NCBI GenBank assembly: GCA_041664365.1
Contig: JBAYKW010000007.1
Coordinates: 434-64,433, forward strand
Length of the DNA: 64,000 nucleotides
Direction of reading: 5' to 3'
DNA from: Patescibacteria group bacterium
GTDB lineage: Bacteria > Patescibacteriota > Patescibacteriia > UM-FILTER-42-10
Part shown: in pieces, positions 33,791 to 57,960 of the stretch
Numbering within the stretch: position 1 is the first letter of the stretch
How the letters are laid out: every line of letters begins with the position of its first letter
Program-made: the position numbers and the translations under genes
The notes under the pieces: generated by a model
Databases searched by the model: none
What the model was told of the DNA's origin: nothing
The model's input: the letters and a program-made list of their open reading frames with translations, nothing else

Positions 33791-33822
33791 CAAAAAAACC
33801 TCCCTTACTAGAGGGAGGTTTA
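33791..33822. terminator. Bidirectional terminator CCTCCC...GGGAGG flanked by an A-run and a T-run
   Basis: Downstream of the minus-strand gene ending at 33831. Confidence 0.5.
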
Positions 33823-33830
33823 AATATATT

Positions 33831-34133: not shown

Positions 34134-34135
34134 GA

Positions 34136-34921: not shown

Positions 34922-34933
34922 TGTTTAGTATTT

Positions 34934-35212
34934 TTATTTAGTTAAATCTAACGGGTCATACCCGCCTTGGCTATAAGGATTACATTTTACAATCCTTGCC
35001 GCCGACTTAATACCGCCTTTTATCACCCCGTATTTTTCAACCGCCTGATACGAATATTCGGAACAGCTGGGAAAATGCTTGCAATAACCATGAGGATATT
35101 TATAAGAAAAAAATCCATGGTCGGGCGACAAGGTTTTTTGGTAGCTTTTAACCAAGAATAATACCGCCTTTCGCGGCATTAGCACCCATTTATTAATCTT
35201 TTTTTTCGGCAT
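34934..35212 (-). CDS. yidD: Membrane protein insertion efficiency factor YidD
   Basis: SYQKTLSPDHG...CKHFPSCSEY...KCNPYSQGGYDP. Confidence 0.8.
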   Translation of the reverse strand: MPKKKINKWVLMPRKAVLFLVKSYQKTLSPDHGFFSYKYPHGYCKHFPSCSEYSYQAVEKYGVIKGGIKSAARIVKCNPYSQGGYDPLDLTK

Positions 35213-35549
35213 ATAAGCGTGATTTTCTGAACAGTTTTTCTATATCTGCTTCAATTTCTTTAAATGACTTATTTTTTACCCCCGGTCTTGCGGAAATTAT
35301 AAAATCGTATCCGGAAAAGATATTGGGGAGTTGTTTCTTAATTATCGCCCTCATTCTTCTTTTCAGTAAATTACGATCAACACTATTTTTATAAATTTTT
35401 TTTGAAATTACAAACCCAAACCGGCTGTTAACTTTTTCTTTTTTCTGAAGATATCTTAAGGAAAGAGAGGGGAGAAAAATGGATTTCCTTTTTTCATAAA
35501 TTTTTTTATAGTCTCCCTCGTTCGTAAGTCGGTATTGCTTAGGAAGCAT
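35193..35549 (-). CDS. rnpA: RNase P protein component
   Basis: 118 aa basic protein; position after rpmH. Confidence 0.8.
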   Translation of the reverse strand: MLPKQYRLTNEGDYKKIYEKRKSIFLPSLSLRYLQKKEKVNSRFGFVISKKIYKNSVDRNLLKRRMRAIIKKQLPNIFSGYDFIISARPGVKNKSFKEIEADIEKLFRKSRLYAEKKD

Positions 35550-35572
35550 AAATAAAAAAATTAGACAGATAA

Positions 35573-35698
35573 TTTAGCTCTTTTTTTTGTTCTTCTTCTT
35601 TTAATAACTTTTTTTCCGGTTGGCGAACTCATTCTTTCCCGGAAACCGTGCGTTTTTTGTCTCTTTCTTTTTTTTGGCTGGTATGTTCTTTTGGGCAT
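35573..35698 (-). CDS. rpmH: 50S ribosomal protein L34
   Basis: Own translation [41 protein letters not shown]; not in the ORF track (under 60 aa). Confidence 0.85.
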
Positions 35699-35901
35699 CT
35701 TTTTTTTATAATTTTTCTATTACTCATTTATAAGTACATGTAGTCTAACAGACGATTGCTCGACGGTCAACGCCAAAATAGTTTATCCTCATTCTTTCCA
35801 CAGATTATAAACAAGTCAAACCATTTTTGACGATATCTGTCTTTCATGTTTTATGCTATAGTCAGTGATAGTCTATATTTAGCAATAAACTATATATTAT
35901 C

Positions 35902-37266: not shown

Positions 37267-37484
37267 CAATTAACTTTTTTGTGTAAAAATCTGTTGATAA
37301 AGGGTGTAGATAATTTGTAGAAAAACAGAAAGAATAATTCTCTTGAACTTTATACACAAAACAACCAACCACTTATCCAAAATAAAATGTTAATAAACAT
37401 TCCAAAAAATAAAAGGGAAAACAAAGAATTAAAATCTTTATCCACTTATTAACATTATTACTACTATAATTAATATAATATACT
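37267..37484. promoter_or_regulatory. Probable oriC: AT-rich dnaA-dnaN spacer with at least four DnaA-box-like 9-mers
   Basis: TTATCAACA (revcomp at 37292-37300), TTATCTACA (revcomp at 37305-37313), TTATCCAAA (37374-37382), TTATCCACT (37438-37446); strand orientation flips here. Confidence 0.55.
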
Positions 37485-38591
37485 ATGAAACTATATTGTA
37501 CCCAGGAAAATTTAAATAGGGGATTAAATATTGTAAGCCATCTGGCAGGTAAGAATACTACCCTTCCAATCCTTGATAATATTTTAGTAAGTATTGAAAA
37601 TGGTATAATTCAACTTTCTACCACAAATTTAGAAATGGGGATCAGTTGTAAAATTAGAGGTAAGGTGGAAAGTGAAGGAAAAACAACTATTCCAGCAAAA
37701 TTATTTTCTGACTATATCAGTCTTCTACCAAATGAGAAAATTTATATTGAAGAAACTGAAAAAAAGATATATATCAGCTGTACCGATCAGGAAACAACAA
37801 TTCAGGGGATGTCGGCTGAGGACTACCCTTTAATTCCTTCATTAGAAAAAAAGAATAAGATTGTGATTAAAACCGAGGATTTAAAAAATGTTGTCAAAGA
37901 AACACTATTTGCCGCTGCCTATGATGAAACAAGGCCGGAAATCAGCGGAATGTTAATAAAAATTGAAGGGAATAAGGCAAGATTTGTTGCAACTGACAGC
38001 TACCGACTCGCCGAAAAAACAATAATTATTGATTCAAAAGGAGTGGGTGATGTAGAAAGCATTTTACCATCCAGAACTATGCAGGAGCTTGTTAGGATTG
38101 TTGGCATGTCAGAGTCGGAAGAAATAGAAATGTATATAGCAGAAAATCAGGTTCTCTTTTGTGTTGATGATATTGAAATAATTTCCCGGGCAATCGAGGG
38201 GAATTATCCGGACTATCAGCAAATAATACCAAAAGAGAAAAAAACCGGCGTCCTGGCAAATAAAGAGGATTTGTTAAAAGTAATAAAAACAACAAGTCTT
38301 TTTTCAAAGAGTGGGATTAATGATGTAAACATCAAAGTGGTAAAAGAAAACAATGAATTAATTGTTTCCGCAATTAATTCACAACTGGGAGAAAACATAT
38401 CTAGGCTGAAAGTTGAGATCGAGGGGGAGGATAATCAAATTGTTTTTAACCACCGTTATCTTTTGGACGGACTGCAGTGTATTGATTCAGAAAAAGTGTT
38501 TTTAGAAATAATAAATAACACAAACCCTGGTGTGGTTCGACCGGAAAATGATGAAAATTACGTTTATATAATCATGCCGATTAAACAGTAG
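37485..38591 (+). CDS. dnaN: DNA polymerase III beta sliding clamp
   Basis: 368 aa, three-domain clamp. Confidence 0.85.
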   Translation: MKLYCTQENLNRGLNIVSHLAGKNTTLPILDNILVSIENGIIQLSTTNLEMGISCKIRGKVESEGKTTIPAKLFSDYISLLPNEKIYIEETEKKIYISCTDQETTIQGMSAEDYPLIPSLEKKNKIVIKTEDLKNVVKETLFAAAYDETRPEISGMLIKIEGNKARFVATDSYRLAEKTIIIDSKGVGDVESILPSRTMQELVRIVGMSESEEIEMYIAENQVLFCVDDIEIISRAIEGNYPDYQQIIPKEKKTGVLANKEDLLKVIKTTSLFSKSGINDVNIKVVKENNELIVSAINSQLGENISRLKVEIEGEDNQIVFNHRYLLDGLQCIDSEKVFLEIINNTNPGVVRPENDENYVYIIMPIKQ

Positions 38592-43913: not shown

Positions 43914-43936
43914 CATGAACATTAATAAATATAATA

Positions 43937-44287
43937 ATGAATGAACAAGGTTTTGAAAGCGATTTTGACATTGAGCAGTTTAGAACGATACTAGCTGCTA
44001 AAACTGAGGAATTTGCGACAGATAGCTATATTACTTATGGGAGTGAATCGAACCAGGAAGAGAATGAAAGAAAAAAAATGAATGCCGCCGAACTTCGTGG
44101 CAGGTTATTAGTGGATTGTGCCGAGGCACTCTTAAAATCGAATGATGCAGAGACAGTAATGTCAGTGATAAGAGAAGCTTTGGTATATTATAGATATGGC
44201 AATGGTTCTGAACTGTTTCCCGGTAGAGCAAAAGAAGATTTTTATTATGATCTTGCTTTAGCAATTGCCAAAGCAAAAAATGAATAG
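43937..44287 (+). CDS. Hypothetical protein
   Basis: 116 aa, no recognisable motif. Confidence 0.4.
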   Translation: MNEQGFESDFDIEQFRTILAAKTEEFATDSYITYGSESNQEENERKKMNAAELRGRLLVDCAEALLKSNDAETVMSVIREALVYYRYGNGSELFPGRAKEDFYYDLALAIAKAKNE

Positions 44288-44374
44288 CAACTATATTTTT
44301 AGTGATAGAAAGTAATGGAAGGATAAATTCTTTAAAAACACTGAGTAGTTTAAAGGAGGATTAAATCAAATAAT

Positions 44375-44686
44375 ATGGGTGAAATTGTTAAATTATTTCC
44401 ATCGGGGAGTGATGACTCTGAGAAAGGCGGGGGGCTTAAATTTGATCAGCGTTTGAACGCTGAAAATATTACTTTGATGTTGGAATTTCTTACTGCACTT
44501 ACCAGGGGTGATCGGTCAGCATTACACCAACCCAATATAGAAATTAGAAGAAGTTTAGTTGCCGTGGCGACAAATGAGGAATTACTTGCAATAGCTAATC
44601 AAAGTAACGAATCTGATTGGCAAGAGCATCCTTCTTATTATCACGCGTTGATTGCGGAGTTAAGAGAACGGCGCCTGATCGGGTAA
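44375..44686 (+). CDS. Hypothetical protein
   Basis: 103 aa; Shine-Dalgarno AAGGAGGA upstream. Confidence 0.45.
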   Translation: MGEIVKLFPSGSDDSEKGGGLKFDQRLNAENITLMLEFLTALTRGDRSALHQPNIEIRRSLVAVATNEELLAIANQSNESDWQEHPSYYHALIAELRERRLIG

Positions 44687-44696
44687 ATATAAATAG

Positions 44697-44726
44697 AGCC
44701 CCTTAATAAAACAAGGGGTTTTATTA
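44697..44726 (+). terminator. Terminator CCCCTT...AAGGGG + T-run
   Basis: Immediately after the 44686 stop. Confidence 0.55.
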
Positions 44727-44925
44727 TTATAATTATCTTGCTAGTCTCTAATATTTGCCAATATAAAAGAGAAGTAGTAGGCTAATCTTAGCATAATATC
44801 AAAATCAGTTGTTTTATCATTGATTTTGCCCCAAAACTTAGTATTAAACATAGTTTTGAGTAATCCCCAGTATTATTACAGGGGATATAAATCAAAGTAT
44901 TTGATATAAATTAATTAGTCGGTAA

Positions 44926-45744
44926 ATGTTAAATCTAGAAAAAGTAAACAAATCTTTCGGTAGGGATGATGATTTCGAAGTTATAAAAGATATAACCCTT
45001 TCAGCCAATGATGGTGAATTTATTTGTATCCTTGGTCCAAGTGGTTGTGGAAAGACAATTTTGCTTTATTTGATGGCGGGGTTTTTAAAACCAACTGGTG
45101 GAAAGATTTTGATGAATGGTGAAATGATTTCCGGTCCCAGTTGTGATCGCATGATGGTTTTTCAGGGCCATGTTCTTTTCCCTTGGAAGACGGTTTATGA
45201 AAATATTTATTATGCTTTGGATAAATCAACATTCAGTAAGGATGAGAAAGATAAACTGGTTATGAAATATTTGGACCTGATGGCACTGGCTTCCTTTAAA
45301 GATTGGTATCCTTATAAACTTTCCGGCGGAATGCAACAACGCGTTGCTTTGGCAAGGGCGTTGGTCACAAATCCGGAAGTTCTGTTGATGGACGAGCCTT
45401 TCTCTGCACTCGATTCTCAATACCGAAAATTTTTAAGGAAAAATCTGGAAATTATTTGGAGAAAGACAAAAAAAACCATAATTTTTGTTACGCATAGTGT
45501 GCACGAGGCAATAAATTTGGCCGACAAAATTTATCTCCTGTCTGCCAGGCCTGCGACTATAAAAAAAGTGTATACAGTAAATCTCCCCAGGCCAAGAGAT
45601 CAATCTAGTAAAGATTTCATACAGCTAAATAATGAAATTGAAGAGGACCTAACTGAGGAATTTGAAAAAATAATTAAAACACCGTCAATGGGAGAGTCTT
45701 TATCTCATATATTAAAATTAAACGGTAGAAGAGGTATTTTATGA
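44926..45744 (+). CDS. ABC transporter ATP-binding protein (NitT/TauT family)
   Basis: [23 protein letters not shown], Walker B LLMDEP. Confidence 0.85.
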
Positions 45745-46760
45745 ATAAAAAATATTTTTTTGGCACCCTGTTTGCATTATTTGCATTAGTATTTATTTAT
45801 TATTTCAATAATTCACTTAACGACAAAAATAACAAGGAAGAAAATAAAATCAAGATAGGGTATAGCATAGACAGCGTAAATCATGCCCCAATTATTATTG
45901 CTGACAATATGGGTATTTTTGATAAACACAAGCTCAATTTGGAACTTATTCCTTTCAAGGGTGGTAAAGAGGTGCAGCAGGCGCTAGCTATGGGCAGTAT
46001 AGATATCGGTTCGGCCGGCGCAACAAATTTTTTCATCCCGATAGCCAAAGGATCCCCGATAAAGATTATTGCTCCTTTAGCAGTTTCCCCGACATTAGTA
46101 TTTGTTGATCCTAGTAGCAATATTAAGACATTTGATGATTTAGTGGGAAAAACCATAGCATCACGAATAGGGCAAAGTTCCAACATCTCGTTAGGTTATG
46201 CTCTTAGGAAAGAGAATATCCCTATCAATACGATAACTTTTGAAGATATTGAGGGTAATCTGCGCCCCCTTGCCTTAATGGAGAAGAAGGTGGTTGATGT
46301 AGCGGTGGCAGGAGAATACAATGAAAAAATATATCTTGATTATGGAGCGGTTGTTTTCGAAGAGTGGATAACAAAAGGTTATGCAGACAAACCAATGCCC
46401 AGAACAGTTATTGCCGTTAATACAGATTCTTTGGAAAAAAATAAAGAAGAAATCAGCAGTTTTATTGATGCAATTATTGAAAGTCAAAGATATATTAAGG
46501 ATAACCCCGATGATGCAGCGGTAATCATTTCCAAACAAATAGAAGAAGCAACTGAAGGAGCGGTAGTCTTTTCTGTCGAAGAATTAAAAGAACAATGGAA
46601 AACAGTAAAATATGTTCTTTGGTATGAACCTTCGGATGTCGTGGAAATTTCGAAAGTAGCGCAAGAAATAGGAGATATACAAACAGCGCTGAGTGTGGAA
46701 CAGATCTTTGATCTGAGTTTTGAGGAAAAATTAAAAAATGCTCAAGATGAAATTTACTAA
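45741..46760 (+). CDS. ABC transporter substrate-binding protein (NMT1/SsuA-like)
   Basis: N-terminal signal anchor; operon position. Confidence 0.65.
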   Translation: MNKKYFFGTLFALFALVFIYYFNNSLNDKNNKEENKIKIGYSIDSVNHAPIIIADNMGIFDKHKLNLELIPFKGGKEVQQALAMGSIDIGSAGATNFFIPIAKGSPIKIIAPLAVSPTLVFVDPSSNIKTFDDLVGKTIASRIGQSSNISLGYALRKENIPINTITFEDIEGNLRPLALMEKKVVDVAVAGEYNEKIYLDYGAVVFEEWITKGYADKPMPRTVIAVNTDSLEKNKEEISSFIDAIIESQRYIKDNPDDAAVIISKQIEEATEGAVVFSVEELKEQWKTVKYVLWYEPSDVVEISKVAQEIGDIQTALSVEQIFDLSFEEKLKNAQDEIY

Positions 46761-47541
46761 GCGAAAAATAAGAAAAATTGCATTGGGGTCGATACCATTT
46801 TTGACTATTTTAGTTGTTTGGGATTTGTTTTACTATTTTAACCAAGACCTAAAATGGCTGATTCCTTCCCCGCTTCAGACTGTCTCATCTTTTTGGCAGA
46901 TGGTTACTGATGGAACGTTTTTAAAGTTGATATCAGTCAGTATATTCAATCTGATCCCGCCCTATATTTTTGCAATAATTTGTGCTGTAGTACTCGGCAC
47001 CTTGATGGGGGTTAATAAAACTGTCCATAAAATTTTCTTTCCATTCTTGTCTGCAATTTACCCGGTACCATCATTGGCTTGGCTTCCGTTTATGATACTG
47101 TTTTTAGGATTTACCAGAGAGGCAATTTGGTTTGTTATTTTTGTTTCCAGCTTCATGAAGATTATTTACAATGTTATCAGCGGGATTCAAAATGTTAATA
47201 TCGAATATGTTTTGGTGGCAAAGAATTTCGGTTTTAGTAAAACTAAGATTGTGTTTGATGTATTTCTGCCATCCGCTCTTCCTCAGATTATGACGGGGCT
47301 TAGAGTAGGTTTTGGTTCTGCTTGGAGATCTTTGATTGGAGCGGAAATGTTGGTTGCGACAATCGGGGGGTTAGGAAAATTTATATGGATGTCCCAATGG
47401 TTTTTTGATTTTGACAAGGTAATGGCCGGTATCGTAGTCATTTCTTTAGTAAGTATTTTTATAGAGCAAATAGTATTTAGGCGATTAGAAAAAAATACTT
47501 TGGTTAAGTGGGGGTTTATAAGTGATGAACAAAAAATTTGA
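46738..47541 (+). CDS. ABC transporter permease (BPD-transport family)
   Basis: 6 TM; EAA-like loop GAEMLVA. Confidence 0.75.
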   Translation: MLKMKFTKRKIRKIALGSIPFLTILVVWDLFYYFNQDLKWLIPSPLQTVSSFWQMVTDGTFLKLISVSIFNLIPPYIFAIICAVVLGTLMGVNKTVHKIFFPFLSAIYPVPSLAWLPFMILFLGFTREAIWFVIFVSSFMKIIYNVISGIQNVNIEYVLVAKNFGFSKTKIVFDVFLPSALPQIMTGLRVGFGSAWRSLIGAEMLVATIGGLGKFIWMSQWFFDFDKVMAGIVVISLVSIFIEQIVFRRLEKNTLVKWGFISDEQKI

Positions 47542-47584
47542 TTCACTTTATCAGCGGAGTTAATGTTAAAATAAATCCAAACAT

Positions 47585-47995
47585 ATGACCGAAATCCCAA
47601 ATAAGCTTTACAGGACCAGTGTTAAAGCTTTGATATTGGACGATAAAAAAAGATTTTTACTTTTATTGGAAGAAAATGGTTATTGGGACCTCCCTGGGGG
47701 TGGACTTGATTTCGGGGAAAATTCTCATGATTGTATTATAAGGGAGTTAAATGAAGAAACGGGATTGGAAGTTATCCATATTAAAAAGAATCCGTCCTAT
47801 TTTATAACGGCTTTGCATATGAACGGTCAGTGGAAAGCCAATATACTATATGAAACACAGGTAAAAGATCTAAATTTTACTTCTTCCAAAGAATGCGTGG
47901 AAATAAGATTTTTTACAAAGGAGGAAGCGTCCAAGGAAAAGATTTATCCTAATGTTAAAGAATTTTTAAAAGAGTACAATCCAAATAACCACTAG
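47585..47995 (+). CDS. NUDIX hydrolase
   Basis: Nudix box GG.LDFGENSHDCIIRELNEETGL. Confidence 0.8.
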   Translation: MTEIPNKLYRTSVKALILDDKKRFLLLLEENGYWDLPGGGLDFGENSHDCIIRELNEETGLEVIHIKKNPSYFITALHMNGQWKANILYETQVKDLNFTSSKECVEIRFFTKEEASKEKIYPNVKEFLKEYNPNNH

Positions 47996-48020
47996 CAAAA
48001 AAACAGAGGAATCGATTTTG

Positions 48021-48107
48021 TATGAATAGAATAATTAACAAATTTGCTAAGGAACTAAGTTTCCAAACCGGCCGTTACATGCTCTCGCCGGAGTTTTTAA
48101 GTTTGTG
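48021..48107 (+). pseudogene. Truncated duplicate of the 5' end of the radical SAM gene (28 codons then TGA), retaining the native Shine-Dalgarno
   Basis: MNRIINKFAKELSFQTGRYMLSPEFLSL* versus MNKILNKLAKELSFQTGRYMLSPEFLSLVITM... at 50124; 37-nt identical core. Confidence 0.7.
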
Positions 48108-48193
48108 AGGTAGTAAATTTATATTGGCATTGGTATATTTGGTGTATCACCATTGACTTCATGTTTCAGTTATGATACAATAATGTCATACAT

Positions 48194-48829
48194 ATGAAAC
48201 GTAAATCAAAAAGTAATCTCCTTGAAGAGCTAACATCTTTACCATATTTTACTAAAGATCTTATTTGTCAATTAGGTAAAGCCGAAAATAGCTATAGTCT
48301 AAAAGATAGCACTATTGATACATATATAAGCCGTTTTCTTAAGGAAAAAGAAATAATCTCTTTAAAAAGAGGTTTATATGTGTCGATGGACTTTTATAAT
48401 AGTAACAAGGATAATCTGTCATATTCATTTTTTCTTGCGAATATTATTAAGAAGCCTTCATATATAAGTTCTTGGGCCGCTCTTCAGTACTACAATCTTT
48501 CTACTGAAATAATACATACAATCACATCAATTACACCAAGAGTCACAAGAAATTATGAAACAAAAATTGGTACTTTTTCATATCAGTCTGTAAAGAAGAA
48601 CTTATTTTCTGACTTTTCTTTTGTAAAAGATAAGTTTGAATTTTTTATTGCCTCCCCCTCTAAGGCTTTATTTGATTTACTTTATTTCAAAACAAGACAA
48701 TTTAGAGGTATAAAGATTAACGATGTAGATTCAATAATTGAAGACTTACGCATTGATATTAGTGAATTGGGCGAAGAAGAGCGGAAGAGATTTTATTTTA
48801 TGATAAATAAAAATATACGTCATGGATAA
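48194..48829 (+). CDS. abiEi: AbiEi-family type IV toxin-antitoxin antitoxin (wHTH transcriptional regulator)
   Basis: 211 aa; N-terminal wHTH with ...ISLKRGLYV (the RG(L/V)Y AbiEi signature); 8-bp overlap with the toxin gene. Confidence 0.6.
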   Translation: MKRKSKSNLLEELTSLPYFTKDLICQLGKAENSYSLKDSTIDTYISRFLKEKEIISLKRGLYVSMDFYNSNKDNLSYSFFLANIIKKPSYISSWAALQYYNLSTEIIHTITSITPRVTRNYETKIGTFSYQSVKKNLFSDFSFVKDKFEFFIASPSKALFDLLYFKTRQFRGIKINDVDSIIEDLRIDISELGEEERKRFYFMINKNIRHG

Positions 48830-50114
48830 TCAAATCATTGTAGCACTTAAAAAAAAGATAGAAGAAATTTCTGCATATGAAGGGGTTGATGCGGAAACTC
48901 AACGCAACTCAATAAAGGAATACCTACAGTTTTATGTGCTTAATTTTATTTATCACCATCCAGAATACAGCAACTGGATTATGTATGGAGGTTCAGCGCT
49001 TCGCATTTGTCATGATCTTAATAGGATGTCGGTTGATTTAGATTTTGAGGTTAATCACGTAATCACAAACGATTTTCTGGAAAAACTGAAGGTAGAAATA
49101 GCCGTCCATTTTGAAAATATATATAATATCGATTCTAGTTCTCTTAGTATTGGGATTACAAATAATAGGGGTGTCACATTAAAATTTCATATAGGAGAAG
49201 AGCTCGGTTTGGGGTTTGCTTCTAAGCAGGTGCATATAAAAATCGATCTAAATCATTTTGTCGCACCAAAAACGGTAGTTGTAGAGCACATACCAAAGAA
49301 CGAGAATCAACTTTCGTTTGTAATTAAAACGTATAATTTATCCGCGCTCATGGCAAGTAAAATTGCCGCAATTTTTCTACGAGGGCCACGTGGAGTTGGT
49401 AGGGTGGTACATGAAGAAAAAGGACGTGATATATATGATCTGCTTTGGTATATGAATAAAAAAATTGTACCTGATTTGGATTACTTATCCGCCAAAGATA
49501 TTAAGTTTGCAGATCCAAAAGAACTATTCAATAATATTACCATTAAGATATTAAACAATCCAAAAACAGATGTAAATCTTAAACATGATTTAACCCCTCT
49601 TTTTATGGATCAAGCCTTTATAAATAATTGGCTCATTAATTGGAGGGATAGTTATCTACAATATCTCAAAGACTATAGAATTCATACCGTATCCACTCTC
49701 GAAAAAATAAGTATAACCCAAGAATTTCATACTGACATATTTTATTTTATATATTGGTATAATATTGAAGATGGAAATCAAGCGAGAATCATATTTCGTA
49801 TTAGTGATTATTGGATTGAATATGGGGAAGGGGATTTAGCAGTCAAGGTTAGTGAAAAAGTAAAGAGGCTGTGTGAATTTAATAGTAATGGATGGACAAG
49901 CCATCCTCCGTCGCAGGATAAATTAATGGAATATGCCGAGCTATTTTACCAAAAGATTGAGCGGTATCTTAAAAAAACAAACCACATAATGCTGGGTGAA
50001 ATTATTACTACTAAACTAATACGGATGACTACTGATCATTTAAACCAGCAAGAACAAATATTATTAAATAAGTCCGCTCTACTTTCTTGTGAATTAGATG
50101 ATTTATTAAAATAA
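48822..50114 (+). CDS. abiEii: AbiEii/AbiGii-family nucleotidyltransferase toxin (DUF1814) with about 130-aa C-terminal extension
   Basis: MYGGSALRICHDLNRMSVDLDFE (GG.AL...DLD NTase motif); 430 aa. Confidence 0.6.
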   Translation: MDNQIIVALKKKIEEISAYEGVDAETQRNSIKEYLQFYVLNFIYHHPEYSNWIMYGGSALRICHDLNRMSVDLDFEVNHVITNDFLEKLKVEIAVHFENIYNIDSSSLSIGITNNRGVTLKFHIGEELGLGFASKQVHIKIDLNHFVAPKTVVVEHIPKNENQLSFVIKTYNLSALMASKIAAIFLRGPRGVGRVVHEEKGRDIYDLLWYMNKKIVPDLDYLSAKDIKFADPKELFNNITIKILNNPKTDVNLKHDLTPLFMDQAFINNWLINWRDSYLQYLKDYRIHTVSTLEKISITQEFHTDIFYFIYWYNIEDGNQARIIFRISDYWIEYGEGDLAVKVSEKVKRLCEFNSNGWTSHPPSQDKLMEYAELFYQKIERYLKKTNHIMLGEIITTKLIRMTTDHLNQQEQILLNKSALLSCELDDLLK

Positions 50115-50123
50115 ATTATTATT

Positions 50124-50208
50124 GTGAATAAAATATTAAACAAACTAGCTAAGGAACTGAGTTTCCAAACCGGCCGTTACATGCTCTCGCCGGAGTTCTT
50201 AAGTTTGG
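50124..50208 (+). repeat. Direct repeat copy B (about 85 bp) of 48021-48105
   Basis: Shared core gtttccaaaccggccgttacatgctctcgccggagtt. Confidence 0.75.
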
Positions 50209-51137
50209 TGATCACCATGAAATGCAACTTCAAATGCCAATCCTGTTCGATCTGGCAGAAACCGTTTGAGAAAGAATTGGAGCAAGAAGATTGGGTAAAG
50301 ATTATTGAAAAATTGACTCACACATTAAAGCCGAATACTTTCGTAGAAATCAATGGCGGAGAGCCGTTAATCAGAAAAGACCTAGTAATATTTTTAATCA
50401 AGGAATTAAAGAAACATTTTAATAAAGTTGCATTGAACTCCAACGGATTACTGGTAAATGAAACAAACTTGGATGAATTGAAACAGGCCGGTTTAGATCT
50501 GATTAAGATATCACTCTACAGTTTAGAGGAAGAAGTACATAATAGTATGCGCGGGCACAGTCTGGCCTTTCAGCATGCTAAAAGAGCGGTAGAACTGATT
50601 ACCCAAAAGCAGATTCCACTTGAAATTGGTTTGTTAGTTACAACGAAAAATATTAAAACTGCTCCGGCACTTATTCAGTATCTTCAAAAATTACCGAACA
50701 CTTCAATCATTCTTCAACCTTTGGATGAAAAAATTGAATCAGCGGAATCAAAAGACCAGAAGGATAATAATCTGATTCCTGACCTTTGGCCGGAGAAAGA
50801 AGATGTGGTCAGTTTCTTCGACTGGGTGGAAAAACATAACCAGGGTATCAAGAATTCCTTGCCCAATATTAAAGCGATACGCCAGTATTATTTGAACCCA
50901 CCCGACATATTGAAATACCGTTGTTTTGCCGGGCAAAGGAATCTGGTGATATATCCAGGTGGAGATGTTGCGTTTTGTTTTAAAAGGAAAGCGATTGGCA
51001 ATATAAACAATCAAGACATAGAATTAATGTTAAAAAATGCCTCTGGTGAAAGAAAGCAGATAAAATATTGTCAGATCGTGGGTTGTAATTTTTCGCGCGG
51101 ATTAAAGGAAGCAATCCACGACAGAATTACGAAATAA
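50124..51137 (+). CDS. Radical SAM protein with C-terminal SPASM/twitch-like Cys cluster; GTG start without a Shine-Dalgarno
   Basis: CNFKCQSC (CX3CX2C), NGGEPL; C-terminal C..C..C..C pattern (RCFAG, AFCF, KYCQIVGCNF). Confidence 0.75.
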   Translation: MNKILNKLAKELSFQTGRYMLSPEFLSLVITMKCNFKCQSCSIWQKPFEKELEQEDWVKIIEKLTHTLKPNTFVEINGGEPLIRKDLVIFLIKELKKHFNKVALNSNGLLVNETNLDELKQAGLDLIKISLYSLEEEVHNSMRGHSLAFQHAKRAVELITQKQIPLEIGLLVTTKNIKTAPALIQYLQKLPNTSIILQPLDEKIESAESKDQKDNNLIPDLWPEKEDVVSFFDWVEKHNQGIKNSLPNIKAIRQYYLNPPDILKYRCFAGQRNLVIYPGGDVAFCFKRKAIGNINNQDIELMLKNASGERKQIKYCQIVGCNFSRGLKEAIHDRITK

Positions 51138-51154: not shown

Positions 51155-51183
51155 AAATCCCTCATTAGCGAGGGATTTTTTAG
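51155..51183. terminator. Bidirectional terminator ATCCCTC...GAGGGAT + T6
   Basis: Between convergent genes. Confidence 0.6.
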
Positions 51184-51205: not shown

Positions 51206-52018
51206 CTAGTTGTCTGGATAGATAACTATCATGACTCTCCGACCATTTGTTGGGTCGCCGTTGTTCCAATCATGAGTGGCATTGATCAGAACATCCGGAT
51301 CATAGACATAGTCGTGTCCTTTGCGGGTGCCGGGGTCATTGGTAATAATCTGTGTTTCCGTCCAGCCTTTAACCACCAGCGCGTGATAGAGCGGACCCGG
51401 TTGTTTAAAATTCGGATTGCCAAGCTCGCGTCCTGCGGAGAGCAGAATCACTGGTTTTCCTTGAGCAACTTGTTGTTTAATGTCATTAATTGTGATGTCA
51501 TAAACTACATCCACTCTTTTGTAATGGTAAAAATCTTTGATCAACTGAGCGGTTTCTTCCGCGGAAGTACTTTTATAATCGCCATATTGGACATTTTGAA
51601 AATCTACCAGCGCGAGCAGCTCATTGTCGGCGGTTTGAGTGTCTTCAAACGGTTTGTTTTCGTAAAAACGATGTACCATCAAAAGCGCCGCTTCTTCGCA
51701 AGTGTCTTCGTGAATTTCATCCCAATTTGCAAGCGGGGCTTGTGAAGTAAAGGGTACATCGAGATTGAGTGTTTTTGGTATGTTAATTGCGACATTTGCA
51801 TTTACTTGATTCAAGTTGACATTAGCAGAATTGGTATTTCGGTTTTCGTTTGACGCCTTCGTGTTTGTATTGGCTGAAATATCATTATATGAAACAGCAT
51901 CAGGTACCGGTTCTTCAAACTGCTCTTTAACCCAATCAGAAACCGGCACGCGGTACCAGTAAAGTACGGCGAGTAATGCGGTGATGATAATTATGCTGAT
52001 GAATAATTTTTTCTTCAT
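51206..52018 (-). CDS. Membrane-anchored papain-fold C39-like peptidase domain protein
   Basis: DTCEEAALLMV (catalytic Cys context) and GHDYVYD; paralogous to the C-terminus of 53629-55569. Confidence 0.5.
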   Translation of the reverse strand: MKKKLFISIIIITALLAVLYWYRVPVSDWVKEQFEEPVPDAVSYNDISANTNTKASNENRNTNSANVNLNQVNANVAINIPKTLNLDVPFTSQAPLANWDEIHEDTCEEAALLMVHRFYENKPFEDTQTADNELLALVDFQNVQYGDYKSTSAEETAQLIKDFYHYKRVDVVYDITINDIKQQVAQGKPVILLSAGRELGNPNFKQPGPLYHALVVKGWTETQIITNDPGTRKGHDYVYDPDVLINATHDWNNGDPTNGRRVMIVIYPDN

Positions 52019-52050
52019 GGTTTTTTGATTGGATCAGGAAGGTTACTACA

Positions 52051-53619
52051 TCATGACCGCTTTGTCAAGCCACTAAGGCGCGTAAACCAGGAACGGACGA
52101 TAGTTGTGTTTTCATCACGCAGGGCATTGCTTACCAAAAAATAAACGAATGCACCGATTAAAACCCCGCTGATGATTTGGATAATCCCCGTCAATGTTCC
52201 GGCTGTGAAAGCGGAACGGAACCACCACAAATAAACGGAGAGAATAGCTGACATAGCCAGCGTGGCAATAATACTGGTACGGGTAGTTGTGATGAAAGAG
52301 GCAATATGGAATCCCTGTACGCGTTTATGGAGGATTAGTAATAGTAATGTTAATTGCAATGCATTCGCAATAGCAAATCCAAGTGGAAGTCCCGCAACGC
52401 CGATCCATTTTGTGAAGGCAAGCGCGCTGACGATATTAGTGGCGGTCATTGCCAGAGAAATTAAGAGCGGAGTCTTGGTATCAAGTTGAGCATAAAATGC
52501 GCGTAGCAGCAGATGGACGACGCTTTCTAAAGGTGTTACCAGGCAGAAGACGCCGAGCGTGAAAGCGGTGGCACGCATGTTGGCATCTGTGAATTGCCCA
52601 CCACTAAAAAGCACATCCGTTATCTCGAAGCGGAGTAGGAACATACCTACGCCAGCCGGCAAGGTAAAAAAAAGGATCCGGGAAAATGTACGGCGGATAT
52701 GTTCCACAAATTTTGGCCAGTCACGGGTACTGGCGGTATCGGTTAGTGTCGGTGAAACAGCGGTGGCCAGCGCAATCCCGAATAAACTGACGGGTAGACT
52801 TTGCAAATTTCTGGAAAGATTAAAAACGGCGATACTGCCGACTGCGAGTGTTGATGCAATGGCATTCCACGCCCAGAGATTTGCCTGAACCGCCATCAGA
52901 TTAATCATGCGCGGGACCATCAGCGTGCCGATCTTGCGGAGTGCCGGGTGTTTTAAATCCAGAATGGGAGTATAACGATATGGTGTGCGGATCAGTTCCA
53001 CAAATCTAAACAGCAGATGCAAAAAAGCACCCGCAATAGTGCCGATAACAGCGGCATGGATGCCGAATTTTTCACTGAATATTAATAGGCCACCAACAAT
53101 ACCGATATTATAAAAAACGGGGGAAAAAGCATAACTGGCAAACCGTTTCATGGAAACTAGGATTGAACCGAATGCATTGGAAAGTGAAAAAAGCAGTGGC
53201 GAGAGCAGCATCAGGCGGGACAGTTCGACGGTAAGCGTTCTTTGTTCACCGTCAAATCCTGGCGCCACCAGTCTGATCAGCACCGGCATCAAAAAGAAAA
53301 CGATTACTGAAAGTATGGTCAGGACAATCGCTGTAAGGTTGAGTACTGTGTTTGCAACACGAAATGCTTCAGAGTTTTGTTTGCGCGCAGTGATATCGGT
53401 CAGGACCGGCATCAGTACCGAAAGAGAAACACCGGCAAATAAGAGATTGGCAATAACATCCGGGATGATAAACGCGGTGTTATATGCATCAAGCGCGGCA
53501 CCGGCGCCGAATGTCGAAGCCAGAAGGCGGTCCCGAAACAAGCCAAGTAGATAACTCAGTAATGATGCTGCGCCCAAAACTAAAGCGCCTCGGGTAATGG
53601 ATTGTGATTTCAATTGCAT
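52051..53619 (-). CDS. murJ: Lipid II flippase MurJ
   Basis: 522 aa, 14 TM, MviN/MurJ family. Confidence 0.85.
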   Translation of the reverse strand: MQLKSQSITRGALVLGAASLLSYLLGLFRDRLLASTFGAGAALDAYNTAFIIPDVIANLLFAGVSLSVLMPVLTDITARKQNSEAFRVANTVLNLTAIVLTILSVIVFFLMPVLIRLVAPGFDGEQRTLTVELSRLMLLSPLLFSLSNAFGSILVSMKRFASYAFSPVFYNIGIVGGLLIFSEKFGIHAAVIGTIAGAFLHLLFRFVELIRTPYRYTPILDLKHPALRKIGTLMVPRMINLMAVQANLWAWNAIASTLAVGSIAVFNLSRNLQSLPVSLFGIALATAVSPTLTDTASTRDWPKFVEHIRRTFSRILFFTLPAGVGMFLLRFEITDVLFSGGQFTDANMRATAFTLGVFCLVTPLESVVHLLLRAFYAQLDTKTPLLISLAMTATNIVSALAFTKWIGVAGLPLGFAIANALQLTLLLLILHKRVQGFHIASFITTTRTSIIATLAMSAILSVYLWWFRSAFTAGTLTGIIQIISGVLIGAFVYFLVSNALRDENTTIVRSWFTRLSGLTKRS

Positions 53620-53628
53620 AAAAATTGG

Positions 53629-55569
53629 TTAGCGGACGACGACTCCGGCATTGCCGAAAATGCCCCAGTCCTGTTCGAAGCGGGCCTTGGTCCAATAAAT
53701 TTGCCCGGCATAAGTGTCATTTAAAATAATCTGAGTTGGGTTATCTTTATTACCGACGTAGCCGATGACGGTGCGGGCATGTTCGCCCTTCCAGGCATAG
53801 ATATATTTTCCGGCGGGTGTGTGCCAGGAATCTTCATAGCCGGAGCCATAAACTCCCCACACAACAACCGCGTTGCCTTTGCTGATTTCTTCCGTGATTT
53901 GTGTCACAGTCCAACCGGTAAAGGCCTCAGAGGGACGCCAGTGGTTGGCTGCGCGGGCAATTGGGTCCCAATAGACACCGTAGCCGGAGGTATTCTGTCT
54001 ACCGCGGATATCGCCGACAAAAGCTTCATATGGATCACCCCAAGTTGCGCCGGAGTGTGGTGTAGTATCGTAACCGACATAGGCCATAATGTCGCTTTCT
54101 GAGACAGAAACTCCTTTACCAGCCAGCGCCATTTTCAAGGCGGCGGCCTCGCAGGATAAAGGTAAATCCTGCAGGTCGCTTGCGATAGTAAGCTTCACTA
54201 CTTCCGGTTCTGTTGTGAAAGAATATGATAAATCTTTTGTTAGATCGAGCCCGTGCACACTTACTATGCCACTTTTTAAATTCAGTTTATAGGTTGAATT
54301 ATTCTGGAAAGCGTCTGATGGCTGGATAATCATCGTGTTCCCTTCCCAGCGAAAGGTAAGTGGTATACTTGGTTCAAGTGTAATATGTGCTTCGGCTGAC
54401 ACATGATCTACTTCCTGATTAAATGCGATTCGAATTCCGCTTTTACTCCCAACTCCGGTGGCATTGTTCCCCGGAGATGTACGGAGTACTTTAATTTCTC
54501 CAATGGTTGTAAATTTATATGAAAGAGGTTCTTCGAGATAGCCACCACCTTGAGTTTTTGTATCAGCTTTGATCATAACTTCATAATCGGTTCCGTAAGC
54601 TAATTTTGCAGCAGGGGTGACAGTTACAACTGTGGCATCTTCAGAAAGTGTGATGCTAGGGTTGATGTCCGGCGTGACTGATAAATTCGCGCGCAAGGAT
54701 TCCAAGTCCATTGCTTTGGTAAATGTAACAGAAATCGGTGTGTCAATAAAAACCGCTTTCCCAGTTGGAGTCGATTCAGCTATTAGTGGTGGCGCGATTG
54801 TCTTAAAAGCGCCGTCATACATTTTTTCTGGCTCACTGCGATGCACGATTTCGCGGGTTGAAATATCACGAGATACGCTAACCCTGAAAACAGTTAAATT
54901 ATATCTTGTTGATTGCTCAAGCGGTTCAGTCGGTGTGAGTGTATATAGATTTTTTGTTTCATTAATTGTTTCTAGAAAAGCAATTTCCGGATCGAACACA
55001 AACTCGAATTCAGCGATATCAGGGTTCGGTTCGGTCAGTTCAATGGTAATTGGGGTAGCTGGTGAAATGTTTTGTGAACGTATTTCAGGGAATACCGCAA
55101 AAATATCCGGCAGGGGTCTTGTTGTAAATTGAAAAGTGGATGAACTTGTTTTACCTACCGGAAGCGGGCTTTGAATATTTTTTAAATCAACTTGATAAGT
55201 AGTCCCCGCAAGTAGTGTGTGGTTTGGTACAAAACGGATGCGCCGGAAAAAACGTCGGTTGAATAAAGGCGCTTCAAAATGCCACTCACCTTCAATATCG
55301 GGTGAAAGGGAAACTGAAAGCGTCTGCCGATCTACCGGACGGCTGAAATCAATAACAATTGATGTAGAAAGGTCTATGTTTTCAGAAGCTTGCGGACTAA
55401 CCTGCGTAATTGTCGGGGTGAATAAAAAGTTTCTTGCCAGGAAAATAAAAAGTACCAGCACGACTGCAAGTACTCCAAAAATAATAATTGCTCGTGAACG
55501 TAAAAAATTTAGATATTTTTTATTGGCTATATATTTATTCTTTTTATCCTCGGTAAAATTCTGCAGCAT
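53629..55569 (-). CDS. Membrane-anchored protein with tandem Ig-like (Big/SbsA-type) repeats and a C-terminal C39-like peptidase domain
   Basis: N-terminal TM; repeated beta-rich modules; C-terminal LSCEAAALKMAL...GEHARTVIGY. Confidence 0.55.
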   Translation of the reverse strand: MLQNFTEDKKNKYIANKKYLNFLRSRAIIIFGVLAVVLVLFIFLARNFLFTPTITQVSPQASENIDLSTSIVIDFSRPVDRQTLSVSLSPDIEGEWHFEAPLFNRRFFRRIRFVPNHTLLAGTTYQVDLKNIQSPLPVGKTSSSTFQFTTRPLPDIFAVFPEIRSQNISPATPITIELTEPNPDIAEFEFVFDPEIAFLETINETKNLYTLTPTEPLEQSTRYNLTVFRVSVSRDISTREIVHRSEPEKMYDGAFKTIAPPLIAESTPTGKAVFIDTPISVTFTKAMDLESLRANLSVTPDINPSITLSEDATVVTVTPAAKLAYGTDYEVMIKADTKTQGGGYLEEPLSYKFTTIGEIKVLRTSPGNNATGVGSKSGIRIAFNQEVDHVSAEAHITLEPSIPLTFRWEGNTMIIQPSDAFQNNSTYKLNLKSGIVSVHGLDLTKDLSYSFTTEPEVVKLTIASDLQDLPLSCEAAALKMALAGKGVSVSESDIMAYVGYDTTPHSGATWGDPYEAFVGDIRGRQNTSGYGVYWDPIARAANHWRPSEAFTGWTVTQITEEISKGNAVVVWGVYGSGYEDSWHTPAGKYIYAWKGEHARTVIGYVGNKDNPTQIILNDTYAGQIYWTKARFEQDWGIFGNAGVVVR

Positions 55570-56479
55570 CTTCTGGTGAAACGGAATTAATAATTACACC
55601 TGATCCAATTTCCACACCCGCCCAGATTGACCCCCGCGGGGTTATTTTCAGATATAGATGCTGGTCTTCATCATTGATAACCTGATGGAAATAGTAGTTG
55701 TAAGGAAGCCCCAGTTCCGCAACTTTGAGTAAAACCTTTTTCAAGATCTTGGCAAATGACATTCTCTCCGCGCTGGTTAAAACTGTAATATTATCCAGAT
55801 GACGTTTGGGCATAATCCAGATTTCGTAGTTGTGGATGGAAGCATAAGGAGTAAAGGCAATTACGTTTTTATCTTCAAAGACAAAACGTGGTCCTTTGCG
55901 TTCTTCCTTTATTACATCACAATAGACACAAGTTCCTTTTTCCAGTTTATACTCCTGGGTTTTTTGCGATTTATCCATGAGGTGCGGGGGGAGAAATTCG
56001 GTGGCGAATACCTGTGAATGAGCGTGGGCGACTGACTGCCCCGCTTTTCCGCCGTCATTTTTGAAGATTAATATATATTTGATTTTATCCAGTTTTGAAA
56101 TTTCGTAAGTCCGTTCCGCATAAACGTCAAATAGTTTTTTAATGTGGCTTTCCGGCAGATATTCCAGTTCAGTCGCGTGATCCGGTGTTTCAATCACTAA
56201 TTCCTGAACGCCGTAGGCATTAGGATTGTCCAAAGTTACGGCCGGGAATTTATTTTTTAGTGTCAGGAGCGACCAGTTTTTCCCCTGTCCGTCATATTTT
56301 CTGATGATCAAATCCTTTTCAATATTTTCCGGGCAGAAAACACATTTTTTCTCCCTGGTTATTTTACTGACAATCTGTTCAAAATCATGCGGGCGATTTC
56401 CCCGGCGGGGTGCAATGATCACATATTTATCTTGGATGTAATCTTTTCTTATTTCAGATTTTTGGACGTTTTCGCTCAT
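55544..56479 (-). CDS. Galactose-1-phosphate uridylyltransferase-like (HIT superfamily) enzyme
   Basis: CVFCPEN zinc knuckle, HAHSQ (HXHXQ). Confidence 0.65.
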   Translation of the reverse strand: MSENVQKSEIRKDYIQDKYVIIAPRRGNRPHDFEQIVSKITREKKCVFCPENIEKDLIIRKYDGQGKNWSLLTLKNKFPAVTLDNPNAYGVQELVIETPDHATELEYLPESHIKKLFDVYAERTYEISKLDKIKYILIFKNDGGKAGQSVAHAHSQVFATEFLPPHLMDKSQKTQEYKLEKGTCVYCDVIKEERKGPRFVFEDKNVIAFTPYASIHNYEIWIMPKRHLDNITVLTSAERMSFAKILKKVLLKVAELGLPYNYYFHQVINDEDQHLYLKITPRGSIWAGVEIGSGVIINSVSPEDAAEFYRG

Positions 56480-56484
56480 GGTAA

Positions 56485-57960
56485 TTATTTTGAATTTAAT
56501 GATTTTTCGTATAGTTCAATATATTTTTGCGCCGACTGAGTCCAGGAGAAATCCTGATTCATGCAATTAACCACCAATCTTCGCCAGAGTTTTTTATCCT
56601 GATAAATTTGCAGAGACTTTTTGGTAACGGCCAACAGTTCGTCGCTTTGATAGTTCTGGAATACAAACCCGGTTCCGGTTCCTAACCCTGCATTGTAATT
56701 CTGGACGGAATCCTTTAACCCGCCGGTAGCTCTGACAATCGGTACAGTTCCGTAACGCATGGCGATCATTTGTCCGAGACCGCATGGTTCAAATCGGGAA
56801 GGCATGAAAAACAGGTCGGATGCGGCATAAATTTCCTGTGCCAGGTCAGCTTTAAATCCAATTACTACCGCCACCTTTTCCGAATGCTTTTCCGCTTCCG
56901 CTTTCAGTTTTTCTTCCAGCACCGCTTCGCCGGTTCCTAAAAAGACCATCTGTACTTCCAGTGTAGCAAGTTCATCAATGATTTCAAGAATCAGATCCAA
57001 TCCTTTTTGGTCAGTCAGCCTGGAAACCATGCCAATTACCGGAATTTCTTTATTCTCAGGCAAATTGACGGCTTTTTGCAGGATCAGCTTATTGTCATCC
57101 TTTTTCTCGATATCCTTAATAGAATAATTTATTTTAATTTGCGGATCCTTCGCCGGGTTGAAATGGTCCTGGTCAATGCCATTTAAAATTCCATATAAAT
57201 CTTCTTTTCTTTTCGCCAACGTCCCTTCCAATCCTTCGCCAAATTCTTCCGTGAGAATCTCTTTCGCGTAAGTTGGGCTGACGGTATTGATGATATTGCT
57301 GTTCAAAATCGCCTGTTGCAAAAAGTTTATGTCATTGTTTTTACCGAACCGTTCACTCAAAGTCGGCCAGTCTTTTTCGGTAACCCCCAGCTTATCAAAT
57401 ACTTTTTCCGGTGAGCACTTCCCCTGGAAGGCCAGATTGTGGATCGTAAGTACGGTAGGGAAGTCCGGTCGTTCCTTTTCTTTGCTGTGCAGTATTTTAA
57501 TCATCGGGATCATAATGCTGGCATGCCAGTCATGACAATGGATTACATCCGGCGTCCATTTCAGCGATCCGAACAGTTCTAAAACCGAACGAGCAAAAAA
57601 TGTGAAACGTCTGGTTTCCTTGCCGAAGTCTCCGCCGATGTCGCCGTAATAAATATCATTTTCCCCCAGAATCTCCGGATGGTCGACGAAATAAACTGGG
57701 ACAGAGCTGTTTGGTAAATTAGTCTTCCAGATGCTGACATTTTCTTCTTTGTTTTTGAAAGGGATGCTGACATTTTCCACAATTTTTTTAAGTCCATATT
57801 TTTTTTCATCAATTACGCCGTATTTTGGCATGATCACCCGGACGTCAATCCCCAGTTGCTTCAAAGCTTTTGGCAGTGCTCCCACCACATCGGCTAATCC
57901 GCCCACTTTGGCAAAAGGAGTAATTTCAGATGCGACGAACAGAACTTTTATTTTTTTCAT
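56485..57960 (-). CDS. glgA: Glycogen (starch) synthase
   Basis: KVGGLADVVGALPKAL N-terminus; GT5 + GT1 domains. Confidence 0.85.
   Translation of the reverse strand: MKKIKVLFVASEITPFAKVGGLADVVGALPKALKQLGIDVRVIMPKYGVIDEKKYGLKKIVENVSIPFKNKEENVSIWKTNLPNSSVPVYFVDHPEILGENDIYYGDIGGDFGKETRRFTFFARSVLELFGSLKWTPDVIHCHDWHASIMIPMIKILHSKEKERPDFPTVLTIHNLAFQGKCSPEKVFDKLGVTEKDWPTLSERFGKNNDINFLQQAILNSNIINTVSPTYAKEILTEEFGEGLEGTLAKRKEDLYGILNGIDQDHFNPAKDPQIKINYSIKDIEKKDDNKLILQKAVNLPENKEIPVIGMVSRLTDQKGLDLILEIIDELATLEVQMVFLGTGEAVLEEKLKAEAEKHSEKVAVVIGFKADLAQEIYAASDLFFMPSRFEPCGLGQMIAMRYGTVPIVRATGGLKDSVQNYNAGLGTGTGFVFQNYQSDELLAVTKKSLQIYQDKKLWRRLVVNCMNQDFSWTQSAQKYIELYEKSLNSK

Follow-up and report, generated by a model that had tools for sequence, protein, structure and literature searches.

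Introduction

How toxin-antitoxin and restriction-modification modules move without a plasmid, a phage or a transposon is an old question. Insertion of restriction-modification gene complexes with long target duplication was reportedly described by Nobusato et al. in 2000 (Gene 259:99). In the part of a published account considered here, such units carry no mobility gene and are bounded by variable repeats of >30 bp made of the target sequence; these often extend across the start or stop of translation, so that the target gene survives, the hosts are mostly competent, and the mechanism is described as not known (PMC2853133). Long target duplication is reported solely for restriction-modification systems in the part of a further paper considered here (PMC3874152). 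In this study we analysed a two-gene AbiE cassette, of the abortive-infection and toxin-antitoxin type, which is flanked by two copies of the start of a radical SAM gene in a Patescibacteria metagenome-assembled genome (MAG; contig JBAYKW010000007.1, positions 434 to 64,433 of the forward strand). This whole stretch of 64,000 nt is called the window below.

Other described systems also come close to this locus. In AbiE and in MenA/MenT (DUF1814), an antitoxin gene is followed by an overlapping nucleotidyltransferase toxin gene, and the cassette has the same layout. In Campbell-type integration, two hybrid copies of the homology flank the insert and the target gene is restored by an element-borne end, which is also the arrangement proposed for this locus; unlike Campbell-type and integrative elements, however, the cassette has no integrase and no fixed attachment (att) site, its homology segment is specific to the locus, and no circular form was observed. 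Minimal mobile elements and homology-facilitated illegitimate recombination are further precedents, in which cassettes without mobility genes are exchanged by host recombination through flanking homology after DNA uptake, and these typically give a replacement or a deletion, not a direct duplication of the anchor.

As in the restriction-modification insertions, the window contains an addiction-type module without a mobility gene between long local direct repeats, and the repeat lies at a translation start and leaves the target gene intact. By the measures of Furuta et al. 2010 (a complete module of <20 kb, no mobility gene and a local direct repeat of >30 bp), the insert is a complete module of 2,018 nt with two open reading frames (ORFs) and no mobility gene, and its local direct repeat of 83-84 nt (92% identity) comprises the first 28 codons of the gene. 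Unlike those insertions, the cargo is a type IV toxin-antitoxin/Abi pair, so that the double-strand breakage by a restriction enzyme invoked by those authors is unavailable here, and the hosts are Patescibacteria and other uncultured lineages. We found nothing specific in the literature on AbiE with flanking repeats or on target duplication by toxin-antitoxin systems; the flanking repeats mentioned in a mycoplasma paper concern another toxin-antitoxin pair alone. We consider it very probable that the window holds a recombinase-free AbiE cassette inserted with long target duplication.

Results

The start of a radical SAM gene is duplicated around the cassette

A repeat search detected a direct repeat of 83 nt with 92% identity at 48023-48105 and 50125-50207. 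When the copies were measured from their start codons (48022-48105 and 50124-50207), 76/84 positions were identical and the mismatches lay at 48022, 48029, 48034, 48036, 48043, 48045, 48057 and 48096 of the first copy; the alignment bore out the direct duplication of ~85 bp that an earlier note had claimed from the letters of this DNA. Seven of the eight differences lie 5' of the longest identical run and one lies 3' of it. The identical core described in the note does exist, with a length of 38 nt instead of 37, and a 36-mer taken from it occurred exactly twice in the window and in none of 100 shuffles.

Copy 1 is an ATG ORF of 28 codons with GAGGA upstream, and it runs into a TGA (48106-48108) at the point where the similarity stops. 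All 28/28 codons aligned with the N-terminus of the radical SAM protein by tblastn. Copy 2 opens, with a GTG, an ORF of 337 aa whose product has Radical_SAM, Fer4_12 and SPASM domains; no purine-rich stretch is present upstream of this GTG, and the abiEii stop codon lies 9 nt before it. The truncated start with its own Shine-Dalgarno and TGA, and the restart of the gene at 50124 as a GTG without a Shine-Dalgarno, were thus confirmed as the earlier note had read them. The duplicated N-terminus is conserved, as 117 full-length Patescibacteria homologues (~340 aa) share the pattern MNKIxNKxxKExSYQTGxYxxxPEFLSL, and judging from these homologues the 28 codons are a genuine conserved part of the protein family. 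A third, decayed copy was sought after the tyrosyl-tRNA synthetase (TyrRS) gene and throughout the window, and none was seen; the only known RNA families that Rfam detected in the repeats or flanks were tRNAs.

The insert consists of a promoter and two genes

The 2,018 nt between the repeats contain only two ORFs, which overlap by 8 nt and match AbiEi and AbiEii, as proposed for this 2-kb segment. The 211-aa AbiEi was recognised by PADLOC profiles only; it departs from described AbiE systems in that it had no Pfam match and scored 22.7 bits with the NCBIfam equivalog TAA_AbiEi against a cut-off of 150. The 430-aa AbiEii matched Pfam AbiEii with 81 bits against a cut-off of 22.5, and its catalytic GGS...DxD residues (G56, G57, S58, D72 and D74) were invariant among 25 family members. 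Its structure model matched only MenT/AbiEii-type nucleotidyltransferases, MenT4, TglT and JHP933 among them, and no recombinase fold was hidden in it. In its Pfam AbiEii and PADLOC AbiEi/AbiEii matches, its invariant Pol-beta-type motif and a fold close to MenT4, MenT3 and MenT1, the pair resembles AbiE/MenT systems, whereas the toxin differs from the solved ones (195-292 aa for those matched) by a conserved C-terminal extension of ~160 aa that they are missing. The toxin and antitoxin roles of the pair are predicted from these similarities.

To find the borders of the cassette, we aligned the flanks of related loci. Upstream (123 non-identical loci), conservation remained at background up to 48152 and was at least 90% across the −35 hexamer (48153), the −10 box and the sequence up to the ATG; downstream (128 loci), it stopped at the abiEii stop codon at 50114. 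Because conservation begins at the −35 box and ends at this stop codon, the conserved unit is the promoter and the two genes only (48153-50114). Neither alignment contained terminal repeats or conserved ends of the cassette, and the repeat search revealed no inverted repeats bounding the insert. There was no attC-like conserved 3' end either, since conservation stops at the abiEii stop, although no attC-specific model was run. A Pfam scan of the ~40 larger ORFs of the window, five of which had no match at all, gave no recombinase, integrase or transposase domain. The insert, with its two ORFs and a nucleotidyltransferase-like AbiEii model, is likewise without an insertion sequence (IS) or integrase, in agreement with the earlier note, and by its predicted gene content it is a minimal selfish AbiE type IV toxin-antitoxin/abortive-infection unit that encodes no recombinase.

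The cassette promoter, TTGACT-17-TACAAT with a TG extension, was the best promoter-like site of the region (10/12), and TGACA/TGTCA half-sites flanking it may constitute an AbiEi operator. We found no terminator between abiEii and the radical SAM gene. Because the best promoter is that of the cassette and the only terminator-like hairpin follows the radical SAM gene, this gene is probably co-transcribed with the cassette.

Table 1. Positions of the insertion, its parts and its flanks in the window.
Feature	Position	Strand	Basis
NUDIX hydrolase gene, left chromosomal flank	47585..47995	+	Pfam NUDIX 1.7e-16
Copy 1: truncated radical SAM 5' fragment with putative native Shine-Dalgarno GAGGA and junction-made TGA	48022..48108	+	repeat search, tblastn
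38-nt identical stretch, likely crossover region, not an att site	48058..48095 (second copy 50160-50197)	+	alignment
47-nt spacer between repeat and cassette promoter, not conserved in other cassette loci	48106..48152	+	column conservation, 123 loci
Cassette promoter, start of cassette conservation	48153..48181	+	promoter-like score, conservation
abiEi, 211 aa, predicted antitoxin and autoregulator	48194..48829	+	PADLOC 1e-35
abiEii, 430 aa, DUF1814/MenT-type nucleotidyltransferase, predicted toxin	48822..50114	+	Pfam PF08843
Intact radical SAM/SPASM gene, GTG, no Shine-Dalgarno; first 28 codons are copy 2 (50124-50207)	50124..51137	+	Pfam
Bidirectional terminator-like hairpin past the radical SAM gene, the nearest one downstream of the cassette promoter	51155..51178		hairpin search

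Flanking repeats recur around related cassettes

The AbiEii family is large, with >1,700 proteins at an E-value of <=0.001. The best 120 relatives listed were 61-100% identical to the window protein, and the family occurs in Patescibacteria, Omnitrophota, contigs binned to other phyla and one Woesearchaeota MAG. An abiEi match was present directly upstream of abiEii at 154/164 loci of the cassette family. We fetched 160 cassette loci (numbered L below) and compared 600 nt upstream with 600 nt downstream of each cassette, counting distinct loci only (119). As controls, 132 pseudo-cassettes of the same size were set at other places within these loci. Flanking direct repeats were detected at 24/119 loci as opposed to 5/132 pseudo-cassettes (Fisher p = 4e-5), and they were 24-301 nt long with 75-100% identity. 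At 16 of these 24 loci the repeat was within 150 nt of the cassette on both sides.

The repeat sequence differed at every locus; it was made of local sequence and usually spanned the start or stop of a neighbouring gene. It consisted of the 5' end of the downstream gene at L015 (19 codons of ychF), L077, L059, L151 (98% identity, from 4 nt before the ATG) and L130, as at the radical SAM gene of the window, and of the 3' end of the upstream gene at L079 (hsdM-like) and L082. At L023 it was intergenic, after a tRNA gene, and at L058, L047, L039 and L106 it contained terminator hairpins. The left junction lay 36-135 nt before the abiEi start and the right junction −2 to 135 nt after the abiEii stop. 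Some repeats were nearly identical (L023, 99%; L151, 98%; L040, 100%). Judged by these comparisons, the repeat scar is common (~20% of the 119 loci) around one very widely dispersed AbiE cassette. The radical SAM 5' end itself was rejected as a recurrent target, as an orthologue of that gene adjoins none of the 160 cassette loci.

One cassette was found in many copies: the AbiEii of P0160 is on record, identical, in 140 collection blocks (24 contigs read; L171-L179). Its left flank was constant, and its right flank switched ~5-110 nt past the stop codon to either a block with DUF7695, type I restriction-modification and RhuM genes or an IS with an rve transposase. This cassette seems to sit at the edge of a variable defence island, because the right flank switches and the left is constant. 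An attempt to define the ends of the element from these contexts failed, as there was a single left context and a variable right one.

At L047 (5201-9514), a unit of 2,154 nt was present twice in tandem with 100% identity, and the junction was without homology. The unit is made up of the repeat and the complete AbiE cassette, with 72 nt of flank before them and 70 nt after. The arrangement is either a very recent tandem amplification, comparable to restriction-modification units that amplify in tandem, or a circle junction threaded by the assembler. At some other loci, the sequences around the cassette were non-coding repeats that recurred from one locus to another, e.g., AACGCACGGAGAGTGCCTTTAAACGCAC..., GGCGTATTGGGCGAAAATG and CGCATACGCAAACGTTAGC (L150:113-413 / 2803-3103; L157:483-677 / 2942-3135; L134 and L138; L019, L024 and L002). 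These had no Rfam match and may be small Patescibacteria repeat elements, not target duplications. At L059 and L124-L126, a cassette whose AbiEii is 61% identical in amino acids to that of the window occurred on a contig assigned to a Woesearchaeota (archaeal) MAG, where the start of an AbrB-like gene is duplicated over 38-40 nt; this would mean cross-domain transfer if the binning is right.

Differences between copies and the origin of the functional gene end

If a gene end were duplicated in place, the truncated copy should decay neutrally, and the differences between the copies should be mostly non-synonymous. Eight coding repeats pooled gave 27 synonymous and 27 non-synonymous differences on 103 and 377 sites, respectively, a ratio of non-synonymous to synonymous differences per site (pN/pS) of 0.27. 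The synonymous excess was significant against neutrality (p = 4e-6) and against a model with one neutral and one constrained copy (p = 0.008). The downstream fragment at L079 differed at 26 positions in 38 codons and nevertheless kept the frame; its replacements are conservative, and its stop codon falls at the homologous position. It looks like the tail of a working orthologous gene.

The direction of the event could be examined at L015, where the repeat is the start of ychF and cassette-free relatives were available (L183/L184, 89% amino acid identity; L185, 93%). The upstream truncated copy and the preceding 35 nt were colinear with the native upstream region of L183, and they matched the L183 state at 5/7 diagnostic sites. 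The truncated copy had 2 changes in 66 nt, one of which damages the P-loop (GKSTLF to GKSALF), whereas the cassette-adjacent functional copy had 5 derived changes in its 57 nt, all synonymous, and L185 has 3 of these as well. With equal neutral rates, as under in-situ duplication and subsequent neutral decay, the binomial probability that at least 5/7 changes hit the functional copy at its 14.7 synonymous sites was estimated at ~0.003. Because the upstream copy is colinear with L183 and has few changes while the functional copy has the synonymous states of another lineage, the upstream fragment is native, and codons 1-19 of the working gene, which are physically joined to the cassette, derive from another lineage. 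That one repeat copy can come from another lineage is new with respect to the restriction-modification papers, in the parts of them considered here.

The comparison available for the window was more distant, with the syntenic locus L170 (ROK, TyrRS, radical SAM, C39-like peptidase, MurJ), which is without the insert and whose radical SAM protein is the closest relative with 68% amino acid identity. L170 shares R3, F8 (TTT) and F25 (TTT) with copy 1 and only the GTG start with copy 2. This weakly suggests that copy 1, which has its own Shine-Dalgarno and continues from the left flank without a break, is native and that copy 2 arrived with the cassette, the same direction as at L015. All seven loci of relatives (L167-L170 and L180-L182) have a single radical SAM N-terminus and no AbiE genes, as expected for an insertion at the 5' end of the gene with duplication of 28 codons; relatives with the duplication and no AbiE genes, which the earlier note had named as evidence to the contrary, were not seen among them. 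A search for an empty site or a donor allele through the NUDIX gene returned, apart from the contig of the window itself (L085), only L086, and L086 stops within the core; a search through the radical SAM protein cluster returned the same protein only, once with V instead of M as the first residue. The homologue P0043, a candidate for N-terminal truncation, was rejected, as its short form was a gene-calling effect with no insert upstream.

Several features of these neighbourhoods were observed in addition. In L170 the GTG start of the radical SAM gene overlaps the TyrRS stop (GTGA; L170:2330-2340). In the window, 4.1 kb (43914-48021) separate TyrRS from copy 1 and contain two small ORFs, an NMT1-type ABC transporter gene and the NUDIX gene; set against L170, this gap appears to be a second indel at the same gene boundary. 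The radical SAM gene neighbours glycosyltransferase genes (GT4, GT2) in L180 and genes for C39-like peptidases and MurJ in the window (51206-57960) and L170, which hints at a role of this Patescibacteria radical SAM/SPASM family in cell-envelope glycan synthesis.

The identical core is coding sequence

The earlier note had pointed to an inverted repeat, CCGGC...GCCGG, within the core, and had suggested site-specific or homology-driven integration and not transposition. The inverted repeat is present, and its significance did not hold up: the fold z-score was −0.79 against shuffled sequence, and 19% of 38-mers drawn at random from the window had an equivalent 5-nt inverted repeat. Within the duplicated segment, the core codes for the residues that are conserved best, SFQTGRYMLSPEF, and the CCGGC and GCCGG are explained by these conserved codons (TGRYMLSPE); CCGG also occurs at the same two places in L170. 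An exact scan of the metagenome contig collection did not find the 36-mer of the core, so the proposed search for an att-like site elsewhere returned nothing beyond the two copies in the window. We rejected the core as an att-like site, as the repeats at the other loci are unrelated and locus-specific and the core is absent from the collection. Of the two modes of integration named in the note, the homology-driven one and the exclusion of transposition agree with our data, and the site-specific one does not.

Assembly support and genomic setting

Two independent contigs cover parts of the locus. L001 (JGI 3300037810) was 100% identical across the right junction, and L086 (Logan SRR6484324) matched the window with 100% identity over the NUDIX gene and on into copy 1, where it broke within the identical core, so that the NUDIX protein adjoins copy 1 in an independent contig as well. 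A k-mer assembler is expected to stop at a repeat. The left junction, from copy 1 into the cassette, was seen solely in the window's own contig. The records for the same radical SAM protein also include a JGI contig of 76,574 nt.

The AbiE locus belongs to the core chromosome, ~11 kb from yidC-dnaA-dnaN. These three genes lie at 34136-38591, so the window spans the replication origin region, and it is from dnaN that the insertion is ~11 kb away. Next to them, a region of ~3.1 kb (30980-34135) contains three tRNA genes (Ala-GGC, Ala-CGC and Arg-CCT), no ORF of at least 110 aa and, apart from the tRNAs, no Rfam family.

Discussion

We favour, with a probability of roughly 0.6, the combined interpretation that the AbiE insertion with long target duplication in the window was made by homology-driven import from a donor; for the part of it which says that integration was homology-driven and copy 2 is donor-derived, the chances seem about even. 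On its arrival from another lineage, the cassette would already have been linked to a short piece of the orthologous gene of that lineage, and the 47 nt to its left (48106-48152) would be carried-along DNA. Host homologous recombination within the gene fragment, Campbell-like or "ends-in", would then have integrated it. The crossover was most likely inside the 38-nt core, which fits because seven differences are 5' and one is 3' of it and because it is the longest run of identity for homologous recombination. The product would begin with the native 5' fragment (copy 1), followed by the cassette and then by copy 2, in which a 5' end from the donor runs into the native remainder of the gene. The insertion would have survived because the radical SAM gene stays intact, its expression then probably relying on read-through from the cassette promoter and on the GTG just past the abiEii stop, and toxin-antitoxin addiction would retain the insert.

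Recombination between the two copies could excise a precise circle with one repeat, which could reinsert in a related cell. The junction of the excised circle would read abiEii stop, ATTATT, repeat, TGAGGTAGTAAATT; the native empty site would read NUDIX, 5' part of copy 1, core, ...TTAAGTTTGGTGATCACC; and the natural 5' end of the donor orthologue would read GTGAATAAAATATTAAACAAACTAGCTAAGGAACTG. We infer a circular intermediate, for which the tandem junction at L047 is suggestive only, and uptake by natural transformation. The latter is plausible because Saccharibacteria have been shown to be naturally competent, with homologous integration that depends on ComEC, and because the phyla of the candidate phyla radiation (CPR) have conserved com genes (PMC10633639). 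We set aside homology-facilitated illegitimate recombination with linear single-stranded DNA as the full mechanism, as a join inside the anchor is topologically hard on one chromatid; at a replication fork it is possible.

Several points weigh against import of a donor gene end. The first joining of a gene-end fragment to the cassette at a new locus is unexplained by it; such an attachment would need an illegitimate event, and L023, L151 and L040 may be fresh in-situ duplications, with which their near-identical repeats fit equally well. "Ends-in" integration of single-stranded transforming DNA is topologically awkward unless the substrate is double-stranded or replicating. About 80% of the cassette loci have no repeat at all. 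The polarity test comprises one sister locus with one or two outgroups, and the polarity of the window depends on the distant outgroup L170, which shares the GTG start with copy 2. Neither a conspecific empty site nor a donor was found for the window, and for want of the empty site we infer its donor import, and with it the origin of copy 2, and do not observe them.

The interpretation published for restriction-modification units, in the part of the account considered here (PMC2853133), would apply here in the form of an in-situ insertion: the cassette is joined illegitimately into an 84-bp staggered break, fill-in duplicates the host sequence, the copies are initially identical, and the eight differences arise later by mutation or by allelic recombination that replaces the functional copy. 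This possibility, though the less probable, deserves to be taken seriously. Besides the near-identical repeats, the variable repeat lengths and the arbitrary distances of the junctions from the genes are what illegitimate joining gives, and some first event of this kind is needed under any model. What it accounts for poorly is the composition of the diverged repeats, as the differences are skewed to synonymous ones, the functional copy at L015 is far more diverged than the unconstrained fragment, and the fragment at L079 resembles a working gene tail; later allelic replacement would be an extra step, with tracts that must end exactly at the cassette border. We therefore keep donor import as the preferred reading.

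The remaining explanations fare worse. Site-specific integration at the core by an integrase or Xer-type recombinase acting in trans is suggested by an identical core between diverged arms, which resembles attL/attR, and by an element without its own integrase, as in Xer-exploiting elements. It is largely refuted, and we regard it as highly improbable, by the repeats around the same cassette family, which share nothing with the core or with each other, by the occurrence of the core twice in the window and nowhere in the metagenome collection scanned, by an inverted repeat at chance level over codons for conserved residues, and by the lack of a recombinase domain among the window ORFs scanned. 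That the contig is a chimera joining strain variants through the shared core is very unlikely as well; it would fit an assembly made from short metagenome reads, the break of the Logan contig inside the core, and a left junction present in only one retrieved contig, but real reads are needed for a chimera to make the junction from radical SAM codon 28 through the spacer to the cassette, an independent JGI assembly has an identical right junction, the 76,574-nt JGI contig is on record as well, and the same architecture was found at 24 loci from different studies and assemblers. A tandem duplication of the gene start older than the cassette, serving as its landing pad, is scarcely credible: we found no support for it, and the single N-terminus in the relatives, the absence of a third copy from the window and the repeats that hug the cassette at many unrelated loci all speak against it. 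An IS or transposon was ruled out by the lack of a transposase and of conserved ends and by a duplication that is 84 bp long and imperfect; an integrase-type element (prophage, integrative and conjugative element or genomic island) was ruled out because neither a tyrosine or serine recombinase nor a common att core was found.

The recurrent scar looks like the mark of a general, host-driven spread of such selfish modules, and differences between the repeat copies inform on its mechanism, as at L015 with one native copy and one from another lineage. The window is a clean example within an intact host gene. For annotation, a cassette of this kind can leave its footprint as a short orphan ORF that repeats the start of a neighbour, or as a host gene whose terminus has been swapped. 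As Saccharibacteria are transformable in the laboratory, homology-driven integration is directly testable. More tentatively, the family with the 430-aa AbiEii could be a mobile element without a recombinase, widespread among uncultured lineages with small genomes, which uses captured host gene ends as portable homology arms. If so, it would spread through DNA uptake and host homologous recombination in Patescibacteria, Omnitrophota and Woesearchaeota-binned contigs; each hop would duplicate a gene end, swap the N- or C-terminus of a host protein for that of the donor, and leave a circle-excisable unit for orthologous sites. The same mechanism would then explain the long target duplications of restriction-modification systems.

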